Origin: an uncultured Leptospiraceae bacterium
Lineage (GTDB): Bacteria > Spirochaetota > UBA4802 > UB4802
Assembly: GCA_964629365.1 (NCBI GenBank)
Contig: CAZVRB010000005.1
Coordinates: 1-63,605 of the forward strand
Length of the DNA stretch: 63,605 nt
Reading direction: 5' to 3'
Both the position numbers and the translations under genes were made by a program. This document shows, in pieces, positions 1,347-52,266 of the stretch; the first letter of the stretch is position 1, and each line of letters begins with the position of its first letter. The notes under the pieces were generated by a model. That model was not told where the DNA came from, searched no databases, and saw nothing but the letters and a program-made list of their open reading frames with translations.

Positions 1347-2795
1347 ATGGCAGTATCTTTAAAGCTGGGGATCAAGCAAAGTCAACGATTAAATCTAACG
1401 CAGTCCCTGCGTCAGTCGATAGAAATACTACAGTTATCTTCAATTGAACTCGCCGAGATCATTTCAGAGGAGTTACAGCAAAACCCGGTTCTCGAAGAAG
1501 AAGGAAGTTCCACTGTACCTTCAGTGGCCGATGCTGACGGAGCCGTGGCCAGTGCCAACAAAGAGCTGAGCGGTGATGAGTCAACGAACCGTCAACGAGA
1601 GGATCATCTTCTGCAATACGAGGACTCCAGCGACAGTGGACTGACATCATATTACGATGATGAAAGGAAGAGAAAATTCCTGGAGAATGCCGTAGCCCAG
1701 GAAGAATCACTGCAGCAGCACCTGCTTGCACAGGCACACGAGCATCCTATTGATGATAAGGACATGCCCCTTTATGAGAGTATCATTACCGCCATTGATG
1801 AAAGAGGGTTTGTCAACAACACCCCGGCCGAAATAGCTGTACATAACGACGTTTCTGAGGACAGGGTATTACACGTGCTGAAAACTATTCAGCTTTTTGA
1901 ACCCGTTGGCTGTGGTGTCTTCAGTGTGCAGGAGAGCCTGCTTGTACAGGCGCGGCAACAGTATCCGGAAGATACACTGCTTCACTCCATACTCGAAAAT
2001 TACTTCAAAGAACTTGAAAACCTTAGATATGATGAAATAGCAAAAAAACAGCGGATTACTATCAAGGACGTAGTAGAACGAAGTAACCTGATACAGAATC
2101 TTGACCCTTTTCCTGGTCAACGCTATTCTTCAGAAAAGATTACCTACATCATACCCGAAGTAGATGTTCAGTATATTGATGGTGAAATTATTATTACCCT
2201 CAATGACGACTGGGTGCCGTCCATACGGATAAATTCGTATTACCTGAATATGATGAAGAAAAAAAATATTGAAAAAAAACTAAAAGATTATATTCAGGAT
2301 AAAATGCAGTCCGCACGCTATCTTATTAAGAACGTAAGCAGCCGCAGGGATACCATACTCAGGGTTGTCAGGGCAATAATGGAGCATCAGAAGGATTTTC
2401 TGATCAGCGGACCGGGTAATCTTAACCCCCTTACCCACGCGGTCATTGCCGAAGAGGTTGGCCTGCACGAATCAACGGTCAGCCGGACAACAACCGGTAA
2501 ATATGTTCAGACTCCCTGGGGGGTGTTTGAATTGAAGTATTTTTTTGTAAGCAGGATACATTCGCAATCAAGTACGGATTATTCATCAGACAGGGTGATG
2601 AGTCTTATAAAAGACATCGTGGCGCAGGAGAAGCCGGATAAGCCCTACAGTGATGAAGATATTCTTTACAGGCTTGAGAAGGCGGGGGTAAAAATCGCAA
2701 GAAGAACCATTGCGAAATATCGTGATATCCTGGGGATTCCATCATCAGGGAAAAGAAAAAAATTAAATATGATAAAAGCAGAGGGTGACAAATGA
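1347..2795 (+). CDS. rpoN: RNA polymerase sigma-54 factor
   Basis: Q/L-rich region I (QSQRLNLTQSLRQSIEILQL), LHESTVSR helix-turn-helix, RpoN box ARRTIAKYR. Confidence 0.97.
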   Translation: MAVSLKLGIKQSQRLNLTQSLRQSIEILQLSSIELAEIISEELQQNPVLEEEGSSTVPSVADADGAVASANKELSGDESTNRQREDHLLQYEDSSDSGLTSYYDDERKRKFLENAVAQEESLQQHLLAQAHEHPIDDKDMPLYESIITAIDERGFVNNTPAEIAVHNDVSEDRVLHVLKTIQLFEPVGCGVFSVQESLLVQARQQYPEDTLLHSILENYFKELENLRYDEIAKKQRITIKDVVERSNLIQNLDPFPGQRYSSEKITYIIPEVDVQYIDGEIIITLNDDWVPSIRINSYYLNMMKKKNIEKKLKDYIQDKMQSARYLIKNVSSRRDTILRVVRAIMEHQKDFLISGPGNLNPLTHAVIAEEVGLHESTVSRTTTGKYVQTPWGVFELKYFFVSRIHSQSSTDYSSDRVMSLIKDIVAQEKPDKPYSDEDILYRLEKAGVKIARRTIAKYRDILGIPSSGKRKKLNMIKAEGDK

Positions 2796-3598: not shown

Positions 3599-3620
3599 TC
3601 GCTGATGTGTGAACGGGGTT

Positions 3621-6638: not shown

Positions 6639-8447
6639 ATGACAGAAACCGGACACAACAGAAAAAAACTAATGGGGGGATACCTGAGACGTCCAAAATT
6701 CCAGGACGTGTTGTTTTTGCTTGGTGTGTTCCTCTTTACTGCTGTCATGCTTTTGAGCCTGTATCCACGGTATCAGCAGGATGAAATAGGAAGAAATTTT
6801 TTCCTGTATACGGTAATGCTGGTTCCCCTGATCGCTGCCATCTATTTCCTGGTCATATCATTCAGGTCTCAAATTCGGAAGCAGGACGCCGAAATTACCA
6901 CAAGTATTCGACTGAAAATCGCGGTTGCCCTGATCGTTGTTGCTATCTTGCCATCCATACCCATCATTATTATTTCGAATAACATGATCAATACAACAAT
7001 AAGCGAACTGATAACCGGTAAAACAGCAGTGGCCCTTGAAGAAGCCATTGAAATGTCCCAGGAATCATTGCAGGATGACATTGAGGACATGCGGCGACAG
7101 CTGAAGCTTGTACGGTTTAACATTATAAATGGGGTGTATTCAACAGGATATTACAAGCGCCAGTATGCTGAATTTCTTGGCGAAGGCAACAGCCCCCATT
7201 ACAGTATTCTTGTGGGTTATGTTACATCGTCTTTACCTTTCAGAAAGACTATTTCTTTCGACACGTCTACGGTTGATAAAAAGGAAGTTGAAGACGTTGA
7301 ACAGCTGAAACAATTTCTCAGCGTGGCTGATCTCCTGAATGATGTGCAGGTTGACCGGTTATCCATAAACGGGAAAACCATCATTGTGGCGCACACCCTG
7401 TATGGAAAAAATCTACTGGTAATGTACCAGTACATATCACCCGAGAAAACACAAAGGTTAACACTGTTTGAAAAGACATATGGTAATTATCGTCAACAGG
7501 AATTTCTGAAACCCTATTTCCAGACCGGGGTTGGCATTGCACTGGTAACTATATCGCTGGTAATTATAATGCTTGCTGCAATTATAAGTTTTGTGCTGTC
7601 AAAAAGCATTTCCCGACCTGCGTTTGAGCTTGTGGATGCTGCAAAACAGGTTGCTTCCGGTGATTTCTCTGTGAAATTGTATAGAAGTGAGAAAGACGAG
7701 ATGACCCTTCTGTTTAATTCTTTCAATCGCATGGTCGAACAGCTGGAACATGGACGTAATGTAATGTACCAGACGCAGAAACTACAGGCATGGCGTGATA
7801 TAGCCCGAAAGCTGGTACATGAGATCAAGAACCCGTTAACCCCTATACGTCTTTCTGCTGAGAGGATATATCGCCGCTACAGCGAGGGGCATCAAGACCT
7901 TGATGCCATTGTGAAACAGGGCACCTCTACTATTGTTGAAGAGGTGAATGTATTAATGCGGCTTCTTTCCGAATTTTCCAGGTTTGCCCGTTTACCTGAA
8001 ATTCAGCCTGAATACCAGCCATTGAACGAGATTGTTGAGAATTGTGTACATTTTTTTAAGGGACATGAAAATATTCATTTCATTATTGACCTGGATGATT
8101 CATTGCCTGAACTGTACGTGGACAGGGGGCTTATCCGACAGGCACTGACAAACCTTATACAAAATGCCATAGAGGCCAGTAATGATGAGGGTGATATTGA
8201 AGTGCACACCATGTATATTGAGGATCCAGATAATAAAATGGCGAAGATCGTTATACGTGATTATGGTATTGGAATTGAAGTAGAAGATATCTCAAATATT
8301 TTTGAACCTACTTTCTCAAAAAAAGAAAATGGTACAGGACTGGGGTTGACAATTGTTGAAAAGATTATTATAGAACATGGTGGACGGATTTACTGCCAGT
8401 CGGAATATGGCAAAGGCAGTACATTCACCATTGAGTTGCCTGTATAA
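6639..8447 (+). CDS. NtrY-like membrane sensor histidine kinase (HAMP, HisKA, HATPase)
   Basis: Several TM helices, AWRDIARKLVHEIKNPLTPIRLSAER H-box, NLIQNA N-box, DYGIG and GTGLGL G-boxes. Confidence 0.92.
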   Translation: MTETGHNRKKLMGGYLRRPKFQDVLFLLGVFLFTAVMLLSLYPRYQQDEIGRNFFLYTVMLVPLIAAIYFLVISFRSQIRKQDAEITTSIRLKIAVALIVVAILPSIPIIIISNNMINTTISELITGKTAVALEEAIEMSQESLQDDIEDMRRQLKLVRFNIINGVYSTGYYKRQYAEFLGEGNSPHYSILVGYVTSSLPFRKTISFDTSTVDKKEVEDVEQLKQFLSVADLLNDVQVDRLSINGKTIIVAHTLYGKNLLVMYQYISPEKTQRLTLFEKTYGNYRQQEFLKPYFQTGVGIALVTISLVIIMLAAIISFVLSKSISRPAFELVDAAKQVASGDFSVKLYRSEKDEMTLLFNSFNRMVEQLEHGRNVMYQTQKLQAWRDIARKLVHEIKNPLTPIRLSAERIYRRYSEGHQDLDAIVKQGTSTIVEEVNVLMRLLSEFSRFARLPEIQPEYQPLNEIVENCVHFFKGHENIHFIIDLDDSLPELYVDRGLIRQALTNLIQNAIEASNDEGDIEVHTMYIEDPDNKMAKIVIRDYGIGIEVEDISNIFEPTFSKKENGTGLGLTIVEKIIIEHGGRIYCQSEYGKGSTFTIELPV

Positions 8448-8462
8448 TAAAGGTGGTTATTT

Positions 8463-9818
8463 ATGGCTAAGATACTTGTGGTTGACGATGAAACTCATAT
8501 ACTCTCTACGCTTGGTGCTATCTTGCAGGATGAGGGGCATATTGTGTATACGGCTGAAACGGGAAACCAGGCGCTGCAGTTTATACGGAACAATGAATGC
8601 GAGGTTGTTTTTCTTGACGTATGGCTGCCGGATATTGATGGCCTGGAGATCCTTGCTAATATCCGGCAGACAAAACCGGATACATCAGTTATTATGATTT
8701 CAGGACATGGATCAATTGATATCGCGGTACGCTCAACAAAAATGGGGGCGTATGATTTCCTGGAAAAACCTCCGTCAATGGAAAGGGTGCTCACATCGCT
8801 GAACAATGCCCTGGAGAAGGTTCGGCTGAAACGAGAAAACATTCAATTAAGGCAGAATATAATGATGGAAGATGACATGATAGGCGAGTCGTCTCCCATC
8901 CGGGAAGTGAAGACTGTTATTGAAACAGCTGCATCAACTAATGCCAGGGTATTTATTACAGGCGATAACGGAACAGGAAAAGAACTGGTGGCAAAGGCCA
9001 TTTACAGAAAATCACAGCGTAATGATAAACCATTCATAAAGGTTAATTGCGCGGCAATACCTGACGAGTTGATCGAAAGTGAATTGTTCGGACACGAGAA
9101 GGGTTCTTTTACGGGAGCAGTTTCCAGGAGACTTGGAAAATTCGAGCTTGCCAACCAGGGAACACTTTTTCTTGACGAGGTTTGTGACATGAGCCCAAGC
9201 GCGCAGGCAAAAGTGCTCAGGGTATTGCAGGAACAGGAGTTCGAACGTGTTGGGGGTAATGATGTTATCAGCGTGGATGTACGTGTTATATCGGCTACCA
9301 ATATTGATATAAAAGAAGCGATTGAATCGGGACAGTTCCGCGAGGACCTGTATTACCGGCTGAATGTAATTCCCATTCATGTACCTGCCCTGTCAGATCG
9401 GGTAAAGGATATACCGCTTCTGGTAGATTATTTTCTCAAGAAAAGCACCAATGAACATGGACTTGGAGATAAGGAAATATCCGAAGATGGTATGGATTTT
9501 CTTATGGAATATTCCTGGCCGGGTAATGTTCGGGAGTTGAAGAACGTAATAGAACGGCTCTCAATAATGGTGCAGGGTGAAGTAATTACACTGGATGACA
9601 TCAAAAAGCATATCAGTTCTTACGATTACGAAGATACAATTTCCAGGGATTATTCTAATCTAAAAAAAGCAAGGGAAGAATTTGAAAAGGACTATATTAT
9701 AAATGCCCTGAAGAAGAATAATAAGAATATATCCGAAACCGCCCGGGCCCTGGGCATAGAAAGAACCAATCTTCACAGGAAGATAAACCAGTATCATGTG
9801 GATGTTGACAGGCTTTGA
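8463..9818 (+). CDS. Sigma-54-dependent response regulator (REC-AAA+-Fis HTH), NtrX/NtrC-like
   Basis: VVDDE and FLDVWLP receiver; GDNGTGKELVA Walker A; ESELFGHEKGSFTGA; LFLDEV Walker B; FREDLYYRLNV; WPGNVREL; C-terminal HTH. Confidence 0.95.
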   Translation: MAKILVVDDETHILSTLGAILQDEGHIVYTAETGNQALQFIRNNECEVVFLDVWLPDIDGLEILANIRQTKPDTSVIMISGHGSIDIAVRSTKMGAYDFLEKPPSMERVLTSLNNALEKVRLKRENIQLRQNIMMEDDMIGESSPIREVKTVIETAASTNARVFITGDNGTGKELVAKAIYRKSQRNDKPFIKVNCAAIPDELIESELFGHEKGSFTGAVSRRLGKFELANQGTLFLDEVCDMSPSAQAKVLRVLQEQEFERVGGNDVISVDVRVISATNIDIKEAIESGQFREDLYYRLNVIPIHVPALSDRVKDIPLLVDYFLKKSTNEHGLGDKEISEDGMDFLMEYSWPGNVRELKNVIERLSIMVQGEVITLDDIKKHISSYDYEDTISRDYSNLKKAREEFEKDYIINALKKNNKNISETARALGIERTNLHRKINQYHVDVDRL

Positions 9819-27809: not shown

Positions 27810-28766
27810 ATGGGCGAGAATGAGAAAAAACTACCTGACGATTCTTTAAAGAAAATTGAACAAAACCCATACGACCCTGCGGGGAAAAAACCAGAAGACC
27901 TGGTTAGAATATTCTATTCTCACAATATTCCACTTATGCCGGTTGTTTCAAAAAGGGGAATCCTGCTTGGTGTGTTGAAAAAAGATGAAGTGATCAGGGA
28001 ATTAAGCGATATTGCTCATTCGTCAAATCAGAAAATAGATGAACTGATTCAGCGACTGGCAAAAAAAATGTCGCTGGATGAGCTTCTCCCCCTTGTAGGC
28101 AACGCGAAAGAGTTCATGGTAATCAACCTTTTTGGAGAGGTACAGGGAAGATGGAGCAGGATCGAGCTTTTTTCAGCTTGTGAGCGGGGACATGTAGTTG
28201 AGGAAAGCACGGGTGAAATGGATTCACAGAAGGAAGCCCAGGTGCTGGAATGGATGATCTACCTGATACTTGAACACATTCCCAGGGCATTATACGCGGT
28301 AAACGAAAGAGGAAAAACTATTTTCTATAACAGTTATTTTGAAAAATTATATGATGGCAGTGGTAAAGATGATGTTGATGTCCAGTTAGTCGAAAAGACC
28401 CTGGCTGATCCTGAGAAAAACGAGATATTTACCCGTTATGCACAGGATGATGCCCATTATTTTTATAACCTTGACCTTGCTATATACTATGAAAAGATAC
28501 CAATGGTAAGCAGTGACAGGAAAGTAGGTTACCTGTATTATTGTGACAATGACATCAACAGAAAGGGGGACGTGCTGCTTCCCGGGATTCAGAGTGGGGT
28601 TGAATCCCTGAAAGATATCCTGGATTCCGTTGAGAGGCATGTAATCGTTGAGGCTATCAAGCATAACAATGGAAATACCACTACCGCGGCAGATATGCTG
28701 CAGGTATCCAGAAGTACCCTTTCGAAAAAGTTTAAAAAACATGCTATTGATATCAACGAACAGTGA
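27810..28766 (+). CDS. CBS + PAS-like + Fis-type HTH protein without an AAA+ domain
   Basis: CBS-like IPLMPVVSKRGILLGVL; PAS-like ILEHIPRALYAVNERGKTIFYN; HTH_8-like VERHVIVEAI...NTTTAADMLQVSRSTL; no Walker A/B or GAFTGA. Confidence 0.72.
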   Translation: MGENEKKLPDDSLKKIEQNPYDPAGKKPEDLVRIFYSHNIPLMPVVSKRGILLGVLKKDEVIRELSDIAHSSNQKIDELIQRLAKKMSLDELLPLVGNAKEFMVINLFGEVQGRWSRIELFSACERGHVVEESTGEMDSQKEAQVLEWMIYLILEHIPRALYAVNERGKTIFYNSYFEKLYDGSGKDDVDVQLVEKTLADPEKNEIFTRYAQDDAHYFYNLDLAIYYEKIPMVSSDRKVGYLYYCDNDINRKGDVLLPGIQSGVESLKDILDSVERHVIVEAIKHNNGNTTTAADMLQVSRSTLSKKFKKHAIDINEQ

Positions 28767-29311: not shown

Positions 29312-30729
29312 ATGAGTAATGAGATGAATGAGTCCGGAACTGAAAACAAGAATACAACCAGGCCCGTCAGCCGGAAAACAGGACAGGGTGGCAAACGTGC
29401 CGGTAATGGCAGTGGTGGAACTACCGGGACAAGCACCCCAAACGGGGATAAAATTATTAAAGAGAACATGAGTGGTAATCGACTGGATCTTGCCGAGTTG
29501 AAGAATAACACTATCAGCGAGTTGATCCAGGTTGCAAAGACAATCGGACTTGACGGGGTATCGGGGCTGAAGAAACAGGATCTCATTTTTGAGATACTGA
29601 AAACCCAGACCGAAAGGAACGGCCTGATATTCTCAAGTGGTGTACTCGAGATACTCAATGATGGATATGGTTTTCTGCGCTCTCCTAATTATAATTACCT
29701 GCCGGGTCCGGATGATATCTACGTGTCTCCATCGCAGATAAGGCTTTTTGGCCTTCGAACAGGTGATACCGTTACCGGTCAGATTCGTCCTCCAAAGGAT
29801 AACGAGAGGTTCTTTGCGCTTTTAAGGGTTGAAGCCGTAAACTTCGAAAATCCTGAAAATCTGCAAAACAGGGTACTCTTTGACAACCTCACCCCGTTGT
29901 ATCCAGAAGAGCGGTTAAACCTGGAGACAATTACCGAAGACGTTGACATGAGGATAGTAAATATAATCACCCCTATCGGACTTGGACAGAGGGCCCTGAT
30001 CGTCGCACCACCAAGAACCGGTAAAACCATCGTATACAGAAGGTGGCGAATGCTATTACTACTAATAATCCGGACATTTACCTCATAGTGCTGCTTATTG
30101 ATGAGCGTCCTGAAGAGGTTACCGACATGGAACGATCGGTACGGGGCGAGGTGGTGTCTTCAACTTTTGATGAACCTGCAACCAGGCATGTTCAGGTGGT
30201 TGAAATGGTGCTGGAAAAAGCCAAAAGGCTGGTTGAACATAAAAAGGACGTGGTAATACTTCTCGACTCAATTACCAGGCTTGCAAGGGCATATAACCAG
30301 GTTGTTCCCACCAGTGGAAAAATTCTTTCAGGTGGTGTTGATTCAAATGCCCTGCATAAACCGAAAAGATTTTTCGGCGCGGCCCGTAACATTGAAGAGG
30401 GTGGAAGTCTTACTATTCTGGCCACGGCACTGATCGATACAGGCAGCAGAATGGACGAGGTAATTTTTGAAGAATTCAAAGGTACCGGTAACTGTGAAAT
30501 ACACCTGGATCGCAAGTTGGCTGACAGAAGAATTTTCCCCGCAATAGATGTCAACAAGTCCGGCACGCGAAAAGAGGAATTATTGCTTGACAAAGAGGAG
30601 CTTAACAAGTTGTGGGTATTACGTAAGGTAATCGCATCAATGAGTTCCACAGAGGCAATGGAGCTTCTTATTGACAAGATGCGGGCCACAAAAAACAACA
30701 GGGCATTTTTTAAAGCCATGAATACATAA
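29312..30729 (+). pseudogene. rho: Transcription termination factor Rho, split by a 1-nt deletion at about 30035 (real lesion or assembly error)
   Basis: ORF 29312-30088 holds the N-terminal half ([24 protein letters not shown]); ORF 30043-30729 holds the rest ([32 protein letters not shown]). Adding one base after GTA (30032-30034) restores ...[14 protein letters not shown]. Confidence 0.93.
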
Positions 30730-30797
30730 TTTTTGTATATTGATAGTAAAAGATTTAAATTGTGAACTGATGAAACGAATAGCACGAGGAGTATAAA

Positions 30798-30998
30798 ATG
30801 AAAAAAGACATTCACCCTGAATATTCTGAAACTACTATAAAATGTGCATGTGGGAACGAGATTAAGACCAGGTCTACTTCAAAAGATCTGCATGTGGAAG
30901 TATGCTCGAACTGTCATCCTTTTTACACGAAGAAACAGAAGATTGTTGACAGTACAGGCCGGGTTGAAAAGTTCAAAAAGAAATACAATATCAAGTAA
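30798..30998 (+). CDS. rpmE: 50S ribosomal protein L31 (Zn-binding type)
   Basis: [27 protein letters not shown]. Confidence 0.96.
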
Positions 30999-31028
30999 TA
31001 ACCGGGCATTTCATAAGACATTGATCCC

Positions 31029-31063
31029 TCAGGGCAGGTGCATCGTACCTGCTCTGATTTATT
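31029..31063 (+). terminator. Intrinsic terminator after rpmE
   Basis: TCAGGGCAGGT / ACCTGCTCTGA 11-bp stem (one G-U) followed by TTTATT. Confidence 0.6.
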
Positions 31064-31204
31064 AATAGTGCACGGGGCAGGTTCCCCAGGCGGAGGATGA
31101 AGTATAGTGTGCAAATATTACACATACTGCTGCCACTGCTCTGTGTAATATCTACACATGTGTAACAAAAATTCCGGGTATTAGTAAAATATTATTGAAT
31201 ATGG

Positions 31205-31233
31205 TTGACGTTTATTAATTATTATTGTATTTT
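31205..31233 (+). promoter_or_regulatory. Putative distal sigma-70 promoter of the sigma-factor gene
   Basis: TTGACG, 17-bp spacer, TATTTT; AT-rich region, so chance matches are possible. Confidence 0.4.
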
Positions 31234-31370
31234 ACACAGGTGACCGCGAAGATGTACAATACATTTGTTAAGATGTAAGTCATCAGGCGACATACTAATT
31301 AGCCATTTATACAATGTATTATCTGCTATTCACACAATCCCGGGAAAAAATATAAATGAAATAATCCCAA

Positions 31371-31388
31371 TTGGTATGAATATTGCTT
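31371..31388 (+). promoter_or_regulatory. Sigma-54 (-24/-12) promoter
   Basis: TTGGTATGAATATTGCTT: GG at 31373-31374, exactly 10 nt, then GC at 31385-31386 (consensus TGGCACG-N4-TTGCW). Predicted +1 near 31398, 28 nt before the ATG. Confidence 0.78.
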
Positions 31389-31425
31389 ATTATATAAGTA
31401 AGTGTTACAAGAGAAGGAGGCAATT

Positions 31426-32262
31426 ATGAGAAGGTATTCTGACGCAGACGACATTTCCATGACAAATTATTTCAGTTCTATTAATGAAGTGAACCTCCTT
31501 ACAAGTGAAGAGGAAGTTACCCTGGCAAAAGCAAAATGTGAGGGTGATGAGAAGTCCAAGGAAAAACTAATAAATGCAAACTTGAGGCTGGTTGTTAAGA
31601 TTGCAAAAAACTATACAAGTCTTGAACCATCTTTGATTGACCTTATACAGGAGGGAAACCTGGGGCTTATCCGTGCAGCTGAAAAGTTCGACTACACTAT
31701 GGGTTGCAGATTTTCAACGTATGCATCCTACTGGATTAAGCATTATATTACCCGATTTATTGCCAAGAGAAGCAGAACGATACGGGTACCCATACGAAAA
31801 GGCGATCTATTTAAAAAAATAAAGAGAGCACAGGATTCACTTGTCAATTCACTTGGTAAGGAACCAAGCCATAAAGAAATAGCTGATATGCTGGGTATTG
31901 AAGAAAAAAGCGTGTCTGATATAATGGAAGTATTTCAGCCAACAATATCACTTGAATACCCGTTGAATGACGATGAATTCAACCTGTATGAAGTGGTGAG
32001 TGATGAGAAATTTCAGTCACCTGACATGGGTATTTACAAGAGAGATCTTAAAGAAGAACTTGAACATGCCATGGAATCTCTCATGGATAACGAGAAACAA
32101 ATACTTAAAAAAAGATTTGGCTTTGAAGATGAAGAACCGGTAACCCTTAAAGAAGTGGGAAACGAATTCGGCATCTCGGCAGAAACAGTTCGCCAGATTG
32201 AAGCCCGTGCCATGTCAAAAATCAAACAGAAGTATTCATTTCTTCAGGATTACATAGATTAG
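31426..32262 (+). CDS. Group-2 sigma-70 family factor, RpoS-like
   Basis: Regions 1.2-4 without 1.1: ANLRLVVKIAK, DLIQEGNLGLIRAAEKFD, RFSTYASYWI, TLKEVG..FGISAETVRQIE. ATG 31426 follows AAGGAGG. Confidence 0.9.
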   Translation: MRRYSDADDISMTNYFSSINEVNLLTSEEEVTLAKAKCEGDEKSKEKLINANLRLVVKIAKNYTSLEPSLIDLIQEGNLGLIRAAEKFDYTMGCRFSTYASYWIKHYITRFIAKRSRTIRVPIRKGDLFKKIKRAQDSLVNSLGKEPSHKEIADMLGIEEKSVSDIMEVFQPTISLEYPLNDDEFNLYEVVSDEKFQSPDMGIYKRDLKEELEHAMESLMDNEKQILKKRFGFEDEEPVTLKEVGNEFGISAETVRQIEARAMSKIKQKYSFLQDYID

Positions 32263-32308
32263 AAGTATACAGGCCATCGATTTAGAATCCGAAGCCGATC
32301 TCACACAT

Positions 32309-32340
32309 ACAAGAGGCAGCCTAAAGGCTGCCTCTTGTGT
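32309..32340 (+). terminator. Strong hairpin (probable terminator) after the sigma gene
   Basis: ACAAGAGGCAGCC-TAAA-GGCTGCCTCTTGT, a perfect 13-bp stem. Confidence 0.75.
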
Positions 32341-32361
32341 ATTATAACAGTTCAAAATTCG

Positions 32362-32390
32362 TTGACAATCCACCCCCGCGTGAATACGTT
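32362..32390 (+). promoter_or_regulatory. Putative sigma-70 promoter of the dikinase-like gene
   Basis: TTGACA, 17-bp spacer, TACGTT. Confidence 0.5.
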
Positions 32391-32464
32391 TAATATTAAA
32401 TATACACAAAACAGTAAATTCTCATGAAATATGTGATAATGAGATTTATTTTGGACTATATCAA

Positions 32465-35400
32465 ATGATAGATCAAGATGTATATGACGTACATAATATT
32501 ATACTTCCAGTAAAGGACAAGGTGGGTGCCAGGAAAAAGGTTGAGAACCTGGTGTCAGAGATGACCCACCCAAATATTGACTGGAAATATATGGTTTCTG
32601 GTCTACGTTCCTACCTGTATGATTATATATACGAACTCGAGGAATACAGCAGCACCGTGTTGCCTGTATTATTTCACTATCTCGCAGAAGCAACCCAGAG
32701 AAAAAGGGGATCCACATTACGTGCGGCAGATACTTTTTTTGACCGGTATATATTTCTCATCCGGAAGGATATATCTGGTGAAACTGCTTTAAGTGAAACC
32801 ACCACGTATTTTGATCACGCGGCAATTGAGTTTTGTGAAATTCTTGAAGAAGACAGCAAAGATGGTTTTTTTCTCGAGGGTGTAAATGAGAGAATACTCA
32901 ACTGCGCAGAACTTTTACTTGAGAGGGATGATGATTACAGTGAAATCGCATACAGGCTTTTAAAACTTCTGATACTACAATATGGAATTTATGTTAGAAA
33001 TGCAGTAGTGATTAAAAATGATGAATTTGAAAAATTGAAGGAAATCTGGCGTCATGATGAAAGTGAGCCGAAAGATGACCGGGATGTTTTACGAAAGCTT
33101 TTATACAGTGTCTCACAAACACAATATGAAGATAGTCTTCAGTCACTTGAAAACCAGGGAGGGAGTAATCCACGAGGGCAACTTGAGTCGTTCAAAAACA
33201 TAATCGATTTTACCCATAACGCGAAAACCTGGGAGAGAATATGTGTTATCAGCAGGGATCTCATCGAAGAGGATGTAATCAAAAACGATAGATACATCCT
33301 GAACCTGTTATCATACCTTGTCGAGAAGTCACAGCAGGGTAATGACTCACAGCTGCAGTTGTTCATGTCACGCACGGTTGCCTCTGTGTGTTCAATACTT
33401 GTCCGAAAGAATAAAACAAATCTTTTACGACAGGTGTTAAACCTTGTGCTGCCACAGCTCTTAAGAGAAATCGAACGGGGTGGAAACTATTATTCCGCCT
33501 TTGCGGCAATATACAACCTGGGTAAAACAATAATTGAGACCGAAAAAGTATACCTGGTTGATCACTTCGTTGACATGCTTGTCAGGTCACGATTCTGCTT
33601 TCCCAGTTTTACCGGTATTGCATCAGACTGGTCGGTGATGGTCAACTCCAGTCACCTTGAGAACATACGTACCTGGATGAGACTGATTGAGTTGAATCCG
33701 CCGCTGATGAAAAAACTTGCTGCCAGCCTGATTGCCAACCTGAAACTCGGGGGTGTCTTTTTAAAGGACACCGATGTTTTCCAGCGTGATGTGTCAAGAC
33801 TTCTTAACAGTGATTATGGTAAAGTCTTTTACCTTATAACTTCTCTGGCCGCCGTGTTTCCCGCGTTCTACCATGATATTGGTGCCACAGGCAACATTCG
33901 TACGTTTACCGAAAGAATTGATACAAATCACCAGATGAATGACATGATCCACTTTATACGCAAGCAGGTGCATGTTGAGTCCAGCAGCCGCACCGTGATA
34001 TTATTGCAGCGGGTCATGGAGTTCTGGATGATCGGTGACAAGACAGTACTTGAAGGCCTTGTTCCCGATGAGGTATACGCCAGCCTTGATCACGTCTACC
34101 GCCTGATAAACCTGGACAATGAGTCAGTGGCCATGCGTATCTATATGGAAATACGTCATGATTTCCCCGAGCTCGTTCATGAAAAATTCTGGGATTTCTT
34201 AAGCAGGGTGGAAAAAAACCGTTTTGTCGAAGCGGTGAAAAACCATGATTTCAAGGACATGGACCCGGATGAGAAAGAAGACGCGTTACGCTGTTTCATC
34301 GAATATTTCAATACAGGGTTTCCCGCCGAGATGACCAAGATGCTGCATCATATAGCTGGAATGTTTGACATAGATACCTCCAGGAAAAAAATATGGCGTT
34401 TCGTATATGAAATTCCTGACGATGATTTTCGACAGCTGTTTGAGAATGTGAGTCGTCTTGACGTCTCGAAGGTAAATGTAGAGAGATTTATTACATTTCT
34501 GCATATATATAGAATGATATTTGATAAGTACAATTTCTCCGACGTACGGGCGGTTGAGAAACTTGAATTGTACGCGGAAGAAGACTTGTTTACTCCCGTG
34601 GATGATCTTTTTAAAGCATTGCGTGGTGATGATGTTTTTTACGCCCTTTCTGTTCTGCTGGAGCAGCAGTATCATCTGAAATGGGATGTCCTTCTTTCTG
34701 ATAAGGTGTTTGAGCCGGTTGACACGATAGAATTTAAACGTCATATCGCTTTCGGAATACCATCCATGTACGGCTCGTACAAGGAGAAAAAGTTCGACAC
34801 GTTGAAAGTCTTTTTTCACTGTAATCTCATACGACAGAGGCTTTTTGAAACACTTATTGAAAAAATAAACATTTATCCCCACGAACCTGTACAATATACG
34901 AACCTGAAAAGGGTATTCAAGTTGTTTATTCAATCATTCGAGGTGGACGGAATCGCCAATTACGAGATGCGCTCTATTGCCAGCCTTCTTGATACACCAA
35001 ACTGTACACTTACCCAGTTCAGGGACATCGTAAAAAGTCTTCTGGATATTCATGGGGAGATATCGGATACATTTAACGATACATTCAAAGTTGTCAGCAA
35101 GGTGGCGGTAAAAAATATCGGTATTGAGAATATTCATGCCGACTTTATTCCCCCCGATCAGCCGGATAATCCCGAAGTGATCATTGATCGTTTTATGAGA
35201 AACCAGATAATGCAGTCACCACTCCTGCAACTGATGGACAACCTGCTGCTTCGGCTGAAGCTGCACCTGGCAAAGGTTACCGGTTATATTGAAGACCAGG
35301 TGGTACTTAACAAGGTGAATCGTCGTACACACAGGGGAAACCTTGTGCAGCCAATCAGGAAAAGCGAATCAGCGGAGAGGATGGACGAACTGTTCGTTCC

Positions 35401-36877
35401 ACTCTGGGAGGCGGGTGCCAAGGCCCAGGGGCTTGTTATAGCCGCAAATATGGATGGCATCAATGTACCCGATGGAATTGTACTGTCAGCTGATCTATAC
35501 AAGCGGGTTAAAGATGGAAATATTGATAATCCCCGTTTTAAACGTAAGCTCATATACATGCTGAAAAAATATATCGATCAGTTCACCGATTACCGTTTCG
35601 GTAATCCCCACAAGCCAATGCTCTTGTCAGTGAGAAGCGGTGCGGTATTCTCCATGCCTGGTGTTATGGATACAATAACTAATGTGGGTATAACCCAGGA
35701 AATTGTTGAAACACTTACTGGATTAGATGAATGGTTTGCCTATGACTGCTACAGAAGGCTTATTCATGATTTTGCCATATCGTTTTTCGATATGGACAGG
35801 TGGGTGTTCGAGGATTTGATATCACAGGCTAAGGATGAAGCGGGTGTTCCGCTAAAGGAGCAATTGTCCGGAAAGCAGATGGAGATTCTTACAAAAAAAT
35901 ACAGGTTTGCCATCAACAGGGAGGGGTATTCAATCCCCAAGGATCCTTACGAACAGCTTTTTTATGCAATTGTTGCCGTGTATAAATCATGGGATTCGCA
36001 GCTTGCCGGTGACTACAGGAAATTTGTCAACATCTCCGACGAATGGGGAACCTCGGTGGTTGTTCAGAGAATGGTATTCGGTAATCTTTCACCGGTATCC
36101 ATTACCGGCGTGGTACACAGTAAGTATATCGGATATGAAAACATAAGTCTTTTCGGAGAGTACAAGACGCGGGCCCAGGGACACGATATTGTAAGCGGTG
36201 TGGCACGGGTGTTTCCCATAAGCGATGAACAGAAACGAAAACATTCACAGTCGGCCCAATACCCGTCTCTTGAGTCTACCTATCCCGGGCATTATAAGAA
36301 ATTATTTGAAGCGGTAAAGCGTATCAGGGACCGTTGGAACAATGATGTTGAGATCGAGTTTACTTTCGAGAATGACGTCCTGTATGTACTACAGGTAAGG
36401 GGTATGACTCACCATATTTTTGAAACGGAAGAACTGGTGGAAACCCCGGAGGAATTAAAAGAATATCTTCTCGGACAGGGACTGGCAGCCTCGGGCGGCG
36501 CGTTATCAGGAAGAGCAGTGTTCTCCCTTGACCGGATTGACACGTTGAGAATGCGCTATCCCCGGGGAAGATTAATATTCATAAGGGCAGAAACAAACCC
36601 GGAGGACGTGGTGGGTTTGCAGAAAACCGATGGTATTTTAACAAGCGTCGGGGGTATGACATCTCACGCCGTATTGCAGATGCGGCGTCTTGAAAAAGCT
36701 GGTGTCAGTGATTTCTCCATCATGAAAACGAATGAACGTGACGGTATGGCAGTTATAAACAGGGAAACCCAGGAGAAAGGGAAAGTGGTAATACGGGAAG
36801 GCGATTTCCTCACTATCGACGGAAACAATGGAAATGTATATCTTGGTTACCATGAAACCAAAAAAAGGCGTGTTTGA
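32465..36877 (+). CDS. 1470-aa PPDK-related protein: about 950-aa unknown N-terminal region, nucleotide-binding domain, phospho-His domain; no PEP/pyruvate barrel
   Basis: PMLLSVRSGAVFSMPGVMDT, WGTSVVVQRMVFGN, AQGHDIVSG, EIEFT, LQVR, and GILTSVGGMTSHA; the protein ends about 70 aa after the His motif. Confidence 0.85.
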   Translation: MIDQDVYDVHNIILPVKDKVGARKKVENLVSEMTHPNIDWKYMVSGLRSYLYDYIYELEEYSSTVLPVLFHYLAEATQRKRGSTLRAADTFFDRYIFLIRKDISGETALSETTTYFDHAAIEFCEILEEDSKDGFFLEGVNERILNCAELLLERDDDYSEIAYRLLKLLILQYGIYVRNAVVIKNDEFEKLKEIWRHDESEPKDDRDVLRKLLYSVSQTQYEDSLQSLENQGGSNPRGQLESFKNIIDFTHNAKTWERICVISRDLIEEDVIKNDRYILNLLSYLVEKSQQGNDSQLQLFMSRTVASVCSILVRKNKTNLLRQVLNLVLPQLLREIERGGNYYSAFAAIYNLGKTIIETEKVYLVDHFVDMLVRSRFCFPSFTGIASDWSVMVNSSHLENIRTWMRLIELNPPLMKKLAASLIANLKLGGVFLKDTDVFQRDVSRLLNSDYGKVFYLITSLAAVFPAFYHDIGATGNIRTFTERIDTNHQMNDMIHFIRKQVHVESSSRTVILLQRVMEFWMIGDKTVLEGLVPDEVYASLDHVYRLINLDNESVAMRIYMEIRHDFPELVHEKFWDFLSRVEKNRFVEAVKNHDFKDMDPDEKEDALRCFIEYFNTGFPAEMTKMLHHIAGMFDIDTSRKKIWRFVYEIPDDDFRQLFENVSRLDVSKVNVERFITFLHIYRMIFDKYNFSDVRAVEKLELYAEEDLFTPVDDLFKALRGDDVFYALSVLLEQQYHLKWDVLLSDKVFEPVDTIEFKRHIAFGIPSMYGSYKEKKFDTLKVFFHCNLIRQRLFETLIEKINIYPHEPVQYTNLKRVFKLFIQSFEVDGIANYEMRSIASLLDTPNCTLTQFRDIVKSLLDIHGEISDTFNDTFKVVSKVAVKNIGIENIHADFIPPDQPDNPEVIIDRFMRNQIMQSPLLQLMDNLLLRLKLHLAKVTGYIEDQVVLNKVNRRTHRGNLVQPIRKSESAERMDELFVPLWEAGAKAQGLVIAANMDGINVPDGIVLSADLYKRVKDGNIDNPRFKRKLIYMLKKYIDQFTDYRFGNPHKPMLLSVRSGAVFSMPGVMDTITNVGITQEIVETLTGLDEWFAYDCYRRLIHDFAISFFDMDRWVFEDLISQAKDEAGVPLKEQLSGKQMEILTKKYRFAINREGYSIPKDPYEQLFYAIVAVYKSWDSQLAGDYRKFVNISDEWGTSVVVQRMVFGNLSPVSITGVVHSKYIGYENISLFGEYKTRAQGHDIVSGVARVFPISDEQKRKHSQSAQYPSLESTYPGHYKKLFEAVKRIRDRWNNDVEIEFTFENDVLYVLQVRGMTHHIFETEELVETPEELKEYLLGQGLAASGGALSGRAVFSLDRIDTLRMRYPRGRLIFIRAETNPEDVVGLQKTDGILTSVGGMTSHAVLQMRRLEKAGVSDFSIMKTNERDGMAVINRETQEKGKVVIREGDFLTIDGNNGNVYLGYHETKKRRV

Positions 36878-40486: not shown

Positions 40487-42358
40487 ATGGCGTTAAATCC
40501 ATTGGTTGATTCTCGGGATGTGCGCTTTGTACTGTATGAAATGATGGACGTGGAAAGCCTTACGAAGTTTGAAAAATACGCTGACTTCGACAAGGACATG
40601 TTTGAAGACATGCTCAACCTGGCAGAAACAATGGCCGTGGAAGAGATCTACCCCACATTTGAAGAAGGTGACAAAGATGGCTGCCATTACATTGGCGACA
40701 CAAAGGAAGTAAAAATTCCTGAGTGCTATCATCCCGCTCTTAACAAGTTTTATGAAGCCGGTTTCGGCGGTATGGACGTTGACGCGGAATGGGGCGGCAT
40801 GGGTATCCCACAGGTTATCGCGTGGGCATGTAACGAGTATTTTTGCTCGGCTAACTATCCGCTTATGATGTATCCAGGCCTTACACATGGGGCGGCAGAG
40901 CTTATCGAGGTTTTTGGTACACAGGAACAGAAAGAAACCTATCTTGAAAAGATGTATCTTGGAGAGTGGGGTGGTTCCATGTGTCTTACCGAACCGGATG
41001 CCGGTTCAGATGTTGGCGCTCTGAAAACAAAGGCTGTCCGACAGGATGACGGCACCTATAAAATTGTTGGACAGAAAATATTTATATCATCAGGTGACAA
41101 TGATTACTATGGCAACATGATACACCCGGTACTTGCAAGAATTGAAGGAGATCCCCCCGGAACAAAGGGAATCTCAATCTTTATTGTTCCAAAATACCTT
41201 GTGAAAGAAGATGGTAGTAACGGTGAATTTAATGATGTATCATGCGCGGGCATAGAGCACAAGATGGGAATCAAGGGCTCTGCCACCTGTACACTCAGCT
41301 TCGGTGACAACGGTAATTGTGTTGGGTATCTTCTGGGTGAAGAGCGAAAAGGTATGAAGATCATGTTCAGAATGATGAACTATGCCAGGATGGGTGTTGG
41401 TCTTCAGGGACATGCCACCGCTTCTGCCGCATATATGCATTCTGTTACTTACGCAAAAAACCGTATACAGGGTGTTCATGTAACACAGATGCTGAATCCT
41501 GAAGCAAAAGGGGTAAGTATTGTTAATCACCCTGACATCAAGAGGATGCTGATGTATATGAAGTCTCATCTTGAAGCGCAAAGGGCTATGATTTACTACC
41601 TTTACAAGAACTACGAGCTTGCCACATTACTTGATGGTGAAGAGGCAAAAGAAGCACAGGCCCTTGTTGAGATCATCACTCCCGTAGAAAAGGCAGGCTG
41701 CACAGATTCATCAGTTTTCTTGACTTCTGAGGCAATGCAGGTTTTTGGTGGATACGGTTATTGCGGGGACTATCCAATTGAGCAGATGATGAGAAACGCA
41801 AAGATTACTGCTATATACGAAGGTACAAACGGTATCCAGGCAATGGACCTTACCATGAGAAAGATTCTTATGAACCCTGAACAGTATAACTACGGTGTTC
41901 TGAAGAAAAGAATCATGGATACAGTCAGCAAGGCCAGGGGTGTTGTAGATGATAAGTATGTTGACCTGGTTGAAAGAGGAGTTAACAAGCTTGACGAGGT
42001 TGTTGAGATGCTGAAAGGCCAGATGGCAGGTGGTAAGTTTCTCCATCTCTTTGCCAATGCCACACCTCTTGAGCAGGCTATGTACATGCTGATTCTTGGA
42101 TGGATGCACCTCTGGATGATGACCATCACAGTTCCCAAGATGAAAGAACTGGTTGGTGACAAGAAAGGTGAAGAGAGAGATGCCCTTCTTAAAGATAACC
42201 AGGAAGCAGCTTTCTATTCAGGCAAGGTTCTGTCTTCACAGTTCTATATCGGCGCAGAATTTCCCAAGTATTTCGGTAACATTGAAGCACTTCTGGGTGG
42301 TGAAAGCGCTGTTATCAAGGCCAGCGAAGAAATTTTTACAGGCGCTCTTGACGAATAA
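40487..42358 (+). CDS. Long-form acyl-CoA dehydrogenase, copy 1
   Basis: MCLTEPDAGSDVG, GQKIFIS, IEHKMGI, FGGYGY, IYEGTNGIQ (catalytic Glu). Confidence 0.95.
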   Translation: MALNPLVDSRDVRFVLYEMMDVESLTKFEKYADFDKDMFEDMLNLAETMAVEEIYPTFEEGDKDGCHYIGDTKEVKIPECYHPALNKFYEAGFGGMDVDAEWGGMGIPQVIAWACNEYFCSANYPLMMYPGLTHGAAELIEVFGTQEQKETYLEKMYLGEWGGSMCLTEPDAGSDVGALKTKAVRQDDGTYKIVGQKIFISSGDNDYYGNMIHPVLARIEGDPPGTKGISIFIVPKYLVKEDGSNGEFNDVSCAGIEHKMGIKGSATCTLSFGDNGNCVGYLLGEERKGMKIMFRMMNYARMGVGLQGHATASAAYMHSVTYAKNRIQGVHVTQMLNPEAKGVSIVNHPDIKRMLMYMKSHLEAQRAMIYYLYKNYELATLLDGEEAKEAQALVEIITPVEKAGCTDSSVFLTSEAMQVFGGYGYCGDYPIEQMMRNAKITAIYEGTNGIQAMDLTMRKILMNPEQYNYGVLKKRIMDTVSKARGVVDDKYVDLVERGVNKLDEVVEMLKGQMAGGKFLHLFANATPLEQAMYMLILGWMHLWMMTITVPKMKELVGDKKGEERDALLKDNQEAAFYSGKVLSSQFYIGAEFPKYFGNIEALLGGESAVIKASEEIFTGALDE

Positions 42359-42384
42359 TAGCTTTCAATGGTTTGCATTCAATC

Positions 42385-42416
42385 AAAAAGACGGGGACTT
42401 CTCCCCGTCTTTTTTT
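42385..42416 (+). terminator. Intrinsic terminator
   Basis: AAAAAGACGGGGA-CTTC-TCCCCGTCTTTTT stem followed by further T residues. Confidence 0.85.
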
Positions 42417-42573
42417 ATGCTTGAGGTTTATCCGGCCATATTTCTTCTGTTTATCAATCAAATCAATAAAACATATTTTTATATATAAAATATAATTAAC
42501 AACTTGTTGGTAATGGTCAAAGTCACATTTACACAAATGAACAAAATATGAATGATGATAACATAACAAATAA

Positions 42574-42601
42574 TTGACAAATACAGGTGAAATTTTATGC
42601 T
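42574..42601 (+). promoter_or_regulatory. Putative promoter of acyl-CoA dehydrogenase 2
   Basis: TTGACAAAT-N13-TATGCT. Confidence 0.55.
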
Positions 42602-42670
42602 GAGTACTGGTAACTTGATGTGTTACAACTTACCACTAAATATATATTAAAATTTTTACAGGAGGTCTTT

Positions 42671-44557: not shown

Positions 44558-44582
44558 AAAAAGATATTTATAAATAAAGAGC

Positions 44583-44613
44583 AAGGCAGGCTGAAAAGCC
44601 TGCCTTTTTTTTT
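44583..44613 (+). terminator. Intrinsic terminator
   Basis: AAGGCAGGCT-GAAA-AGCCTGCCTT followed by a T-run. Confidence 0.88.
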
Positions 44614-44672
44614 GAGAAAAATAATGAATATATAAAACATTTTTCTGTAATGGTGAAAGTGTTAAATAACTA

Positions 44673-44721
44673 TTGACAAATGATATTACAATATTATGCA
44701 CATACTTGTGCAATATTACAA
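44673..44721 (+). promoter_or_regulatory. Putative promoter and operator of acyl-CoA dehydrogenase 3
   Basis: TTGACAAAT-N13-TATGCA; palindrome TGCACA-N4-TGTGCA (44697-44712) flanked by ATATTACAA direct repeats. Confidence 0.55.
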
Positions 44722-44766
44722 ATTTTATGTAAAAAAAATTCACTTTTAATCAAAATGGGGGTTGTC

Positions 44767-46638: not shown

Positions 46639-46675
46639 CAGTTGACCGACTGTCCAAATTTATTTTCAAAATGCG

Positions 46676-46720
46676 TTGACAAATATGTAAGGCATTATAT
46701 GTATTACATTAATACATATA
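46676..46720 (+). promoter_or_regulatory. Putative promoter and operator of acyl-CoA dehydrogenase 4
   Basis: TTGACAAAT-N13-TATGTA; perfect palindrome TATATGTATTA-CAT-TAATACATATA (46696-46720) over the -10. Confidence 0.55.
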
Positions 46721-46753
46721 ATGCCTGGTGGAACTTCTCACTAAATGAAAATT

Positions 46754-46784
46754 AGTCCAGGCGATACGCCTGGACTTCTATTTT
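46754..46784 (+). terminator. Terminator-like hairpin between the copy-4 promoter and its ATG
   Basis: AGTCCAGGCG-ATA-CGCCTGGACT followed by TCTATTTT. Confidence 0.55.
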
Positions 46785-46817
46785 ATAAAAAAAGAAAATT
46801 ACACAAGGAGGTTTCTC

Positions 46818-52151: not shown

Positions 52152-52235
52152 GAAAAATCCTCCTGTGATGTGTTCATTTAATTTTCTGGAGTCAGGAGGA
52201 GGGTGGGAACGCATCGGGAAGTCGATTGATGTTAC

Positions 52236-52266
52236 AAACGAAAAAACACGCCTCAAGAGGCGTGTT
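52236..52266 (-). terminator. Intrinsic terminator in the riboswitch expression platform
   Basis: Minus strand: AACACGCCTC-TT-GAGGCGTGTT followed by T residues. Confidence 0.8.

Follow-up and report, generated by a model that had tools for sequence, protein, structure and literature searches.

Introduction

Is the switch from RpoN (sigma-54) to an RpoS-like sigma factor a property of Borrelia, or does it also exist in other spirochaetes? This question is raised by a stretch of 63,605 nucleotides from an uncultured Leptospiraceae bacterium (GenBank assembly GCA_964629365.1, contig CAZVRB010000005.1, positions 1 to 63,605 of the forward strand; hereafter the window), in which a gene encoding an alternative sigma-70-family factor (31426-32262) follows a -24/-12 promoter of the sigma-54 type. 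The initial annotation of the window proposed an RpoN-to-RpoS-like cascade outside Borrelia that is older than the tick-borne lineage. This proposal is well supported by the conservation of the promoter and by the gene order flgI-flgJ-sigma in a wider class of spirochaete sigma factors. We consider it likely that the gene is transcribed by the sigma-54 polymerase (RpoN, encoded at 1347-2795 of the same window) in an enhancer-bearing version of a cascade of the Rrp2-RpoN-RpoS type.

The RpoN-RpoS pathway is the central host-adaptation switch of the Lyme disease agent and has been treated as a Borrelia peculiarity. The cascade was called unique to Lyme Borrelia in a 2025 review, a survey of sigma-54 regulons cited sigma-S control for Borrelia only, and Leptospira is stated to lack RpoS. 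RpoS of Borrelia burgdorferi (BB0771) is viewed as a 'divergent' RpoS, an orphan whose origin is unclear (PMC6719511; 2025 review), and in earlier phylogenies the only proteins set beside BB0771 were those annotated as RpoS (PMC6719511). For spirochaetes besides Borrelia, we found no account in the open-access literature of an RpoS-like sigma factor under sigma-54 control.

Results

Conservation of the sigma-54 promoter upstream of the sigma factor gene

The correctly spaced -24/-12 promoter that the initial annotation had placed upstream of the gene was recovered (Table 1). It fits 10 of the 12 specified positions of the sigma-54 consensus (TGGCAC / TTGCW context), and nowhere else in the 63.6 kb of the window is TGGYAYN5TTGCW matched. 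A lone match of this kind is not above chance (0.36 expected; at least one match in 30 of 100 shuffled windows). The promoter is judged to be real because it is conserved across loci, not because of the single match in the window.

Loci of the window's sigma family were fetched using the peptides YWIKHYI and MGC[RK]FSTY, which yielded 20 metagenomic loci and one genome locus (L001). One pattern used to scan genome contigs, QEGN[LIM]GL[IM]R, was generic, and that scan returned mostly RpoD, with L001 as the only family locus. GG-N10-GC was located 44-85 nt 5' of the ATG in 19 of the 21 family loci, flanked by TGGCAC, TGGAAC or TGGTAT on one side and by TTGCT, ATGCT, GTGCT or CTGCT on the other, and the promoter was kept 5' of orthologues with 47-100% protein identity. 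Further, a canonical sigma-54 promoter was present 37-50 nt 5' of the start codon in all ten sampled lineages of a related group of sigma factors, the Spirochaetia class described below; examples are CTGGCACGGTTATTGCA in a metagenome-assembled genome (MAG) of Treponema sp. and TTGGCACGATGATTGCT in Spirochaetaceae, and Spirochaetales MAGs were also sampled. The locus of P0124, another relative, bears such a promoter as well.

When 24 non-redundant orthologous or homologous loci were considered together, 20 had a match of at least 10/12 on the gene strand between -100 and -30 of the start codon, so that the conservation of GG-N10-GC upstream of orthologues, which had been suggested as a check, was confirmed. 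The background for such a match was 0.0014 per interval (the rate elsewhere in those 24 loci). In 79 control loci of RpoD type from other phyla, four such matches occurred in 110 kb of upstream DNA, at scattered positions. An alignment of ten distinct spacers by MAFFT had a mean column identity of 36%, and its invariant columns were confined to the second of two upstream palindromes (see below), the -24/-12 element, the Shine-Dalgarno sequence and the ATG; the GG and TGCT columns of the promoter were invariant. The -24/-12 element upstream of the sigma gene is a conserved, selected element. The frequency of the strict pattern in shuffled windows speaks for a chance match in AT-rich intergenic DNA; conservation of sequence and position in 20-23 of the 24 loci and the negative RpoD control loci make this explanation exceedingly improbable.

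With C31386 taken as -12, transcription is predicted to start near 31398 and the leader to be 28 nt long. This geometry fits the start about 28 nt before an ATG with a strong Shine-Dalgarno sequence that was originally proposed, and no significant structure was found in the predicted leader. Of the sigma-70 promoter that had also been suggested upstream, we detected only weak matches, TTGACG-17-TATTTT (31205-31233, 9/12) and TTTACA-18-TACAAT (31231-31260, 10/12). As a conserved feature it was rejected, with 12 matches against 6.0 expected in AT-rich DNA and a location outside the conserved alignment blocks.

We also noted that, in the Spirochaetia-class locus L174, the sigma-54 promoter of the gene, TTGGCATGGGACTTGCA (3021-3037), falls 3' of the start that the public gene call (3001-3903, 300 aa) assigns to the gene. 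Translation probably begins at the ATG at 3059, 58 nt downstream of the called start, to give about 281 aa, as in its relatives.

Upstream palindromes and a candidate activator

The spacer 5' of the sigma gene contains a pair of 17-bp palindromes at an interval of 34 bp, with about 223-257 bp separating them from the -24 GG (Table 1). The sequence TGTRTA-N5-TAYACA, with at most one mismatch, has three matches in the window against 0.52 expected, the pair accounting for two of them. Most promoter-bearing loci of the family possess two palindromes, separated by 31-34 bp and about as far upstream (220-280 bp), and L089 and L100 have one only within 500 nt. Palindromes numbered 37 in about 13 kb of DNA upstream of sigma genes versus 13 in 214 kb elsewhere. 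In the Spirochaetia class, one palindrome (N5 or N6, at most one mismatch) was found in six of the ten lineages (L161, L166, L168, L170, L173 and L174), mostly with about 100-125 bp between it and the -24 element, and with about 45 bp in L173. Two further lineages of the ten have a degenerate copy.

Enhancer sites of the NtrC family typically have a 6-N5-6 geometry and are arranged in tandem about three helical turns apart. Because the palindrome pair matches these sites in both respects, and because loci throughout the family, as well as several Spirochaetia homologues, have promoter and palindromes together, we interpret the pair as a candidate enhancer for the cognate activator.

In L081, whose sigma protein is 99.6-100% identical, the palindromes lie 91 bp further from the ATG than in the window. 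There is therefore a spacer indel between close strains, with the palindrome pair and the promoter kept. Separately, a near-match to the palindrome, TGTATATGACGTACATA, occurs at 32479-32495, just within the start of the gene at 32465-36877.

The window also encodes RpoN and a sigma-54 activator, as the initial annotation had stated. RpoN exceeds the cut-off of its equivalog model, and the activator has the REC-AAA+-HTH_8 architecture of the NtrC family (Table 1), with GSFTGA at residue 214, the Walker A sequence GDNGTGKE and the receiver Asp in FLDVWLPD. It is the only AAA+ activator among the open reading frames (ORFs) of the window that were scanned, and is the candidate cognate activator of the sigma gene. 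On the basis of adjacency, the sensor kinase encoded directly 5' of it would be its partner.

The sigma protein belongs to a class of short spirochaete sigma factors

The gene had been described as encoding a group-2 sigma factor, and Pfam identified regions 1.2 to 4 in the protein (Sigma70 r1_2, r2, r3 and r4); the first domain, region 1.2, begins at residue 12, and region 1.1 is missing. Among NCBIfam models, those of RpoD/SigA type scored best (259 bits against a cut-off of 384.5, and 256 against 572), and the proteobacterial RpoS models TIGR02394 and PRK05657 gave 239.1 against 378.7 and 232.5 against 394, respectively. No RpoD or RpoS equivalog cut-off was thus reached in the NCBIfam scan, the protein was not FliA under any NCBIfam model, and no Borrelia-specific RpoS model was among the top NCBIfam matches of the sigma proteins.

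The motifs VPIRK and GISAETVRQIE, to which the initial annotation had drawn attention, are present at residues 121-125 and 249-259. Relative to E. coli sigma-70, R124 (followed by K125) stands in place of H455, A252 in place of R584 and T254 in place of R586. We take H455 to be the reader of the extended -10 element and R584 and R586 to be the readers of the -35 element. The window's family also has H106 for sigma-70 Q437 and Y102 for W433, and the residues MGCRFSTYASYWIKHY are specific to it; in the class defined below, as in RpoD, the 106 column is occupied by Q. At the column of K173 of E. coli RpoS the protein has Asp (D127), and its C-terminus lies 19 residues past RQIE, without an extension.

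Homologues of the protein form a tight set of 278-aa proteins with 53-100% identity, from MAGs of uncultured Spirochaetota, after which identity falls sharply to about 45% (RpoD, other phyla). In an exhaustive search with the family profile, family representatives scored 436 and 422 bits and the next proteins at most 338. The next-best full-length short proteins were P0124, P0171, P0182, P0195, P0198 and P0214. Two motifs are invariant in these six and in the family: P-x-R-K after R-x-I-R in region 3.0, and S-x-E-T-x-R-Q-I-E in region 4.2. The region 3.0 counterparts are P-V-H-M in RpoD and P-I-H-I in E. coli RpoS, and the region 4.2 counterpart is T-R-E-R-[IV]-R-Q-I in both. We define the Spirochaetota short sigma class by a length of about 275-305 aa, R-x-[IV]-[RQ]-x-P-x-R-K, S-x-E-T-x-R-Q-I-E and a sigma-54 promoter 37-85 nt 5' of the ATG. 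The window's sigma gene has every one of these features.

A search using the class alignment returned thousands of proteins of about 280 aa, and every source-named one was from a spirochaete (Treponema sp., Spirochaetaceae, Termitinemataceae, Spirochaetales and Spirochaetia). Three protein searches gave only uncultured spirochaete clusters among the best 120 listed, and no obvious Borrelia entry was present in the best 150 of the exhaustive representative search. The pair of P-x-R-K and S-x-E-T-x-R-Q-I-E was confined to class proteins when about 190 other top-scoring sigma factors were inspected. In a neighbour-joining tree the window's family was monophyletic at 96.5%, with E. coli RpoS and RpoD outside. 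Further, the profile of the Spirochaetia class gave a median of 321 bits on the window's family versus 287 on RpoD-like proteins. The best NCBIfam match of Spirochaetia-class members was TIGR02394, the proteobacterial RpoS model, and solved RpoS chains scored below RpoD/SigA chains. Three class members of 320-392 aa (P0129, P0192 and P0144) have long acidic or low-complexity N-terminal extensions and an amino-acid composition of a very AT-rich type; the source name of P0144 is Spirochaetota bacterium, and P0129 and P0192 have none.

Public labels (NCBI, JGI) on the named class members are nearly all RpoD/SigA or primary sigma factor. These names, together with the RpoD-type models that are the best NCBIfam matches of the window's protein, would make it the housekeeping RpoD/SigA. 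This is very unlikely: the equivalog cut-offs are missed by the window's protein and every RpoD cut-off by the scanned class members, a protein of 278 aa without region 1.1 has key promoter-reading residues changed, and dependence of a housekeeping sigma gene on sigma-54 and an activator is implausible.

Gene order and residues shared with Borrelia RpoS

In the Spirochaetia class the sigma gene stands in the neighbourhood flgG-flgA-flgI-flgJ-sigma-YibQ-like-tsaD or a subset of it, and is directly 3' of flgI-flgJ in L166, L174, L175 and L176, where the intervening spacer holds the sigma-54 promoter. In B. burgdorferi, rpoS directly follows flgI-flgJ, with its sigma-54 promoter in the flgJ-rpoS spacer (PMC1976401, PMC6117026). 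RpoS of this species has a conserved Ile at 79 and, close to where E. coli has K173, R121/K122; it lacks both K173 and a C-terminal extension (PMC6719511). The spacing of I82/R124/K125 in the window's protein is identical to that of I79/R121/K122, the Borrelia side being taken from the text of PMC6719511. Judging from gene order and sequence features, BB0771 and the Spirochaetia class are very probably orthologues, and the window's family would be a deep sister of this class, or possibly a paralogue.

The BosR direct repeat of Borrelia, TAAATTAAAT, was considered as a conserved element and rejected, since it was seen only in L098/L099, a lineage of the window's family without the sigma-54 promoter. 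There ATTTAATTTA, the reverse complement of the repeat, lies 87 nt 5' of the sigma ATG (3740), and in AT-rich DNA it may be a chance occurrence.

Counter-evidence and alternative explanations

Several observations weigh against an enhancer-bearing cascade of the Borrelia type in the window. The lineage L098/L099 (67% identity) has neither the sigma-54 promoter nor the palindromes in the 500 nt before the sigma ATG, having either lost them or never possessed them. The candidate activator gene lies 22 kb from the sigma gene. The adjoining kinase has a HAMP domain, unlike HK2 of Borrelia, which is described as wholly cytoplasmic (2025 review). The other points concern the relationship to Borrelia RpoS and the role of the palindromes, and are considered here with the explanations that draw on them.

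The gene might be sigma-54 dependent without being an orthologue of Borrelia rpoS. In this case rpoD would have been duplicated, independently or to give a paralogue, and the copy would have gained a sigma-54 promoter or retained one in parallel. The window's family is found in the order rho-rpmE-sigma, not in flgJ-sigma-tsaD synteny, as a paralogue could be. The comparison with BB0771 was made through published residues and gene order only. Similarity to the Spirochaetia class is barely above that to RpoD (280 versus 273 bits with the family profile, a marginal difference), and the clade joining the family, P0124 and the Spirochaetia class has a weak bootstrap value of 60%. The family-specific residues, H106 among them, point the same way. 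Against such an origin, the rare motif pair is common to the spirochaete class alone among the roughly 190 next-best sigma factors, and the two branches are equal in protein size, domain limits, promoter type and distance of the promoter to the ATG. Further, TGTRTA...TAYACA is present upstream in both branches, which is hard to explain by convergence, and P0124, which also has the promoter, is intermediate in sequence. We therefore regard a non-orthologous duplicate as unlikely and prefer descent of the window's gene within the spirochaete class.

The palindromes, in turn, might be operators of an ordinary transcription factor, such as the product of 27810-28766 or a CRP-like regulator, with the activator working from solution. 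The latter has precedent in B. burgdorferi, in which Rrp2 acts without an enhancer and does not bind the 238 bp upstream (PMC1976401). Against an operator stand the strict co-occurrence of the palindromes with the sigma-54 promoter and their joint absence from L098/L099. An operator is favoured by lone copies of the palindrome: in L083 (an extra copy, CGTGTAAATTTTACACA, 1516-1532), and likewise in L084-L086, L088 and L092, one palindrome is located 116 nt 5' of the start codon of rho, where no sigma-54 promoter is near, so that the binder need not be an enhancer-binding protein. In addition, 220-280 bp is long for an enhancer. The 27810-28766 product is a protein of 318 aa with a C-terminal Fis-type HTH_8 domain, weak CBS-like similarity near its N-terminus and no AAA+ domain. 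Its gene is kept in the order dapB-(27810-28766 gene)-rho-rpmE-sigma in the window, L081, L091, L093, L094 and L100, and the protein could be the palindrome binder or unrelated. In the L083 group, where both palindromes are present, tblastn did not detect this HTH_8 protein. The HTH_8 domain of the activator is intact, and the tandem 6-N5-6 dimer sites are spaced in the manner typical of the NtrC family. We hold an operator function to be less likely; the candidate enhancer remains our preferred interpretation of the pair.

Other features of the window

The sigma gene is preceded by rho, rpmE and an AT-rich spacer of 427 bp and followed by a gene of phosphoenolpyruvate (PEP)-utilising type for a protein of 1470 aa. 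The terminator after rpmE is predicted to insulate the sigma gene from read-through from rho-rpmE. The strong hairpin noted after the gene by the initial annotation was confirmed (Table 1). Its U-tract is weak and a consensus terminator scan did not call it; it is the probable terminator of the sigma gene. No second sigma-70-family gene was found within the window, and a search of 30700-32600 against Rfam gave nothing close to any gathering score.

Table 1. Positions of the genes and signals discussed in the text
Feature	Position	Strand	Remarks
rpoN (sigma-54)	1347..2795	+	414 bits with TIGR02395 (cut-off 277); ARRTIAKYR, the RpoN box, at residue 451
hpf	2792-3598		After rpoN; Pfam
hprK	3609-4580		After hpf; Pfam; rpoN-hpf-hprK is the classical arrangement
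Sensor histidine kinase	6639..8447	+	HAMP-HisKA-HATPase_c (Pfam); directly 5' of the activator gene
NtrC-family sigma-54 activator	8463..9818	+	REC, AAA+ Sigma54_activat (242 bits) and HTH_8; Pfam, NCBIfam
Intrinsic terminator after rpmE	31029..31057	+	13-bp stem, then TTTATT
Palindrome 1, TGTGCAAATATTACACA	31108..31124	.	One mismatch to TGTRTA-N5-TAYACA; nearly invariant block in the orthologue alignment
Palindrome 2, TGTGTAATATCTACACA	31142..31158	.	Perfect; T143, G144, T145, T147, A148, T154, A155 and C158 invariant (alignment A5)
Sigma-54 (-24/-12) promoter, TGGTATGAATATTGCT	31372..31387	+	GG 31373-4, GC 31385-6, exact N10
Shine-Dalgarno sequence, GAAGGAGG	31413..31420	+	5 nt ahead of the ATG; GGAGG kept in orthologues
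Alternative sigma-70-family factor gene	31426..32262	+	ATG 31426 to stop 32262; 278 aa
Hairpin 3' of the sigma stop codon	32307..32340	+	15-bp perfect stem, -27.5 kcal/mol, z -7.25

In the window, rho (29312-30729) is contained in two overlapping ORFs, owing to one missing base near 30035 (CATCGTA-TACAG versus CATTGTATTACAG in the near-identical L081). Either the assembly is in error here or the window's rho is a pseudogene; L081 and L083 each have an intact rho. The 1470-aa protein encoded at 32465-36877 has the PPDK_N and PEP-utilizers domains only in its last ~440 residues, and its N-terminal ~1000 residues have no recognised domain. The window, L081, L090 and L091 have its gene 3' of the sigma gene, and other lineages do not. 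Further, four tandem paralogous genes for long acyl-CoA dehydrogenases (623-652 aa) lie at 40487-48689, and the window also has a TonB-dependent receptor gene (50133-52256) and a neutral ceramidase-like gene (17273-19294).

Discussion

Proposed mechanism

In the cascade that we propose, a signal would reach the kinase and activator pair, for which the products of 6639-9818 are the candidates. The sigma-54 holoenzyme would sit on the promoter at 31372-31387 as a closed complex that requires ATP-dependent remodelling by the NtrC-type activator. The phosphorylated activator would most likely oligomerise on the tandem palindromes about 220-260 bp upstream, and contact the promoter by DNA looping to give the open complex. 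The mRNA would start near 31398, carry the unstructured 28-nt leader and end at the hairpin at 32307-32340, and the unstructured leader and strong Shine-Dalgarno sequence would allow efficient translation. The new sigma factor would then compete for core polymerase and direct a regulon of its own, which the altered extended -10 and -35 determinants (R124, A252 and T254) are expected to specify.

Origin and significance of the cascade

The RpoN-to-RpoS cascade is probably an old spirochaete module and not restricted to Borrelia, because the arrangement of conserved sigma-54 promoter and palindrome recurs across the phylum. New here are the tandem palindromes as a candidate enhancer, the Spirochaetota class of sigma factors of about 280 aa and the flgI-flgJ-sigma synteny of its Spirochaetia branch. 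On balance, we lean towards a scenario in which an NtrC-type activator acting on a TGTRTA-N5/6-TAYACA enhancer, sigma-54 and a dedicated sigma factor of about 280 aa with its own promoter specificity were in place before Spirochaetia and the deep, free-living lineage of the window diverged. Loss of the enhancer in Borrelia would be secondary, with BosR recruited there, and the cascade would serve different regulons in Treponema and other spirochaetes.

If this is true, the origin of BB0771 would be explained as that of a member of a spirochaete-specific sigma class, not of a proteobacterial-type RpoS. Cultivable spirochaetes that are non-pathogenic or genetically easier would become models for the activator, sigma-54 and the sigma factor. 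The conserved palindrome would be a concrete candidate for the enhancer that was never found in Borrelia, and the original signal of the cascade would become testable by comparative regulon analysis. Further, hundreds of Spirochaetota entries named RpoD/SigA would probably be misnamed.

Comparison with known systems

Proteobacterial RpoS (sigma-S, TIGR02394) resembles the window's protein in its group-2-like architecture of regions 1.2-4.2 and its similar length. In contrast to it, the window's protein scores far under the model cut-off, has Asp at the K173 column and lacks the C-terminal extension; further, E. coli RpoS falls outside the neighbour-joining clade of the window's family. On these grounds the identification of the protein as a proteobacterial RpoS was rejected. 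We also know of no proteobacterial rpoS that is transcribed from a sigma-54 promoter.

In the flagellar cascades of Vibrio, Pseudomonas, Campylobacter and Helicobacter, sigma-54 and an NtrC-type activator rank above FliA (sigma-28). The hierarchy, with sigma-54 and an NtrC-type activator above a second sigma factor, is the same as that proposed for the window. The downstream sigma factor there is the group-3 FliA, whereas that of the window is group-2-like with regions 1.2-4.2.

NtrC binds the enhancer TGCACC-N5-GGTGCA at glnA, and the upstream activating sequence of NifA is TGT-N10-ACA. The window's palindromes share with such sites the 17-bp 6-N5-6 form, the tandem arrangement about three helical turns apart, the outer triplets TGT...ACA and the location 5' of a sigma-54 promoter. 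They differ in sequence, TGTRTA-N5-TAYACA (that is, TGT-N11-ACA), and in their longer distance from the promoter (220-280 bp in the family).

The closest comparison is with Rrp2-RpoN-RpoS of B. burgdorferi, from which the window's system differs in several respects. The gene follows rho-rpmE and not flgJ; it has a conserved tandem pair of palindromes upstream, whereas Rrp2 is reported to be enhancer-free; no BosR-type direct repeat is conserved; and the kinase has a HAMP domain, in contrast to the cytoplasmic HK2, in an organism that is an uncultured environmental spirochaete. Common to the two systems are a -24/-12 promoter directly 5' of a short group-2-like sigma gene, the presence of rpoN, and a kinase gene adjoining that of an NtrC-type activator of REC-AAA+-HTH architecture. 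Both sigma factors have Arg-Lys past the conserved Pro of region 3.0, with no equivalent of K173 and no C-terminal tail, and the flgI-flgJ-sigma synteny of Borrelia is held by the sister branch of the class.

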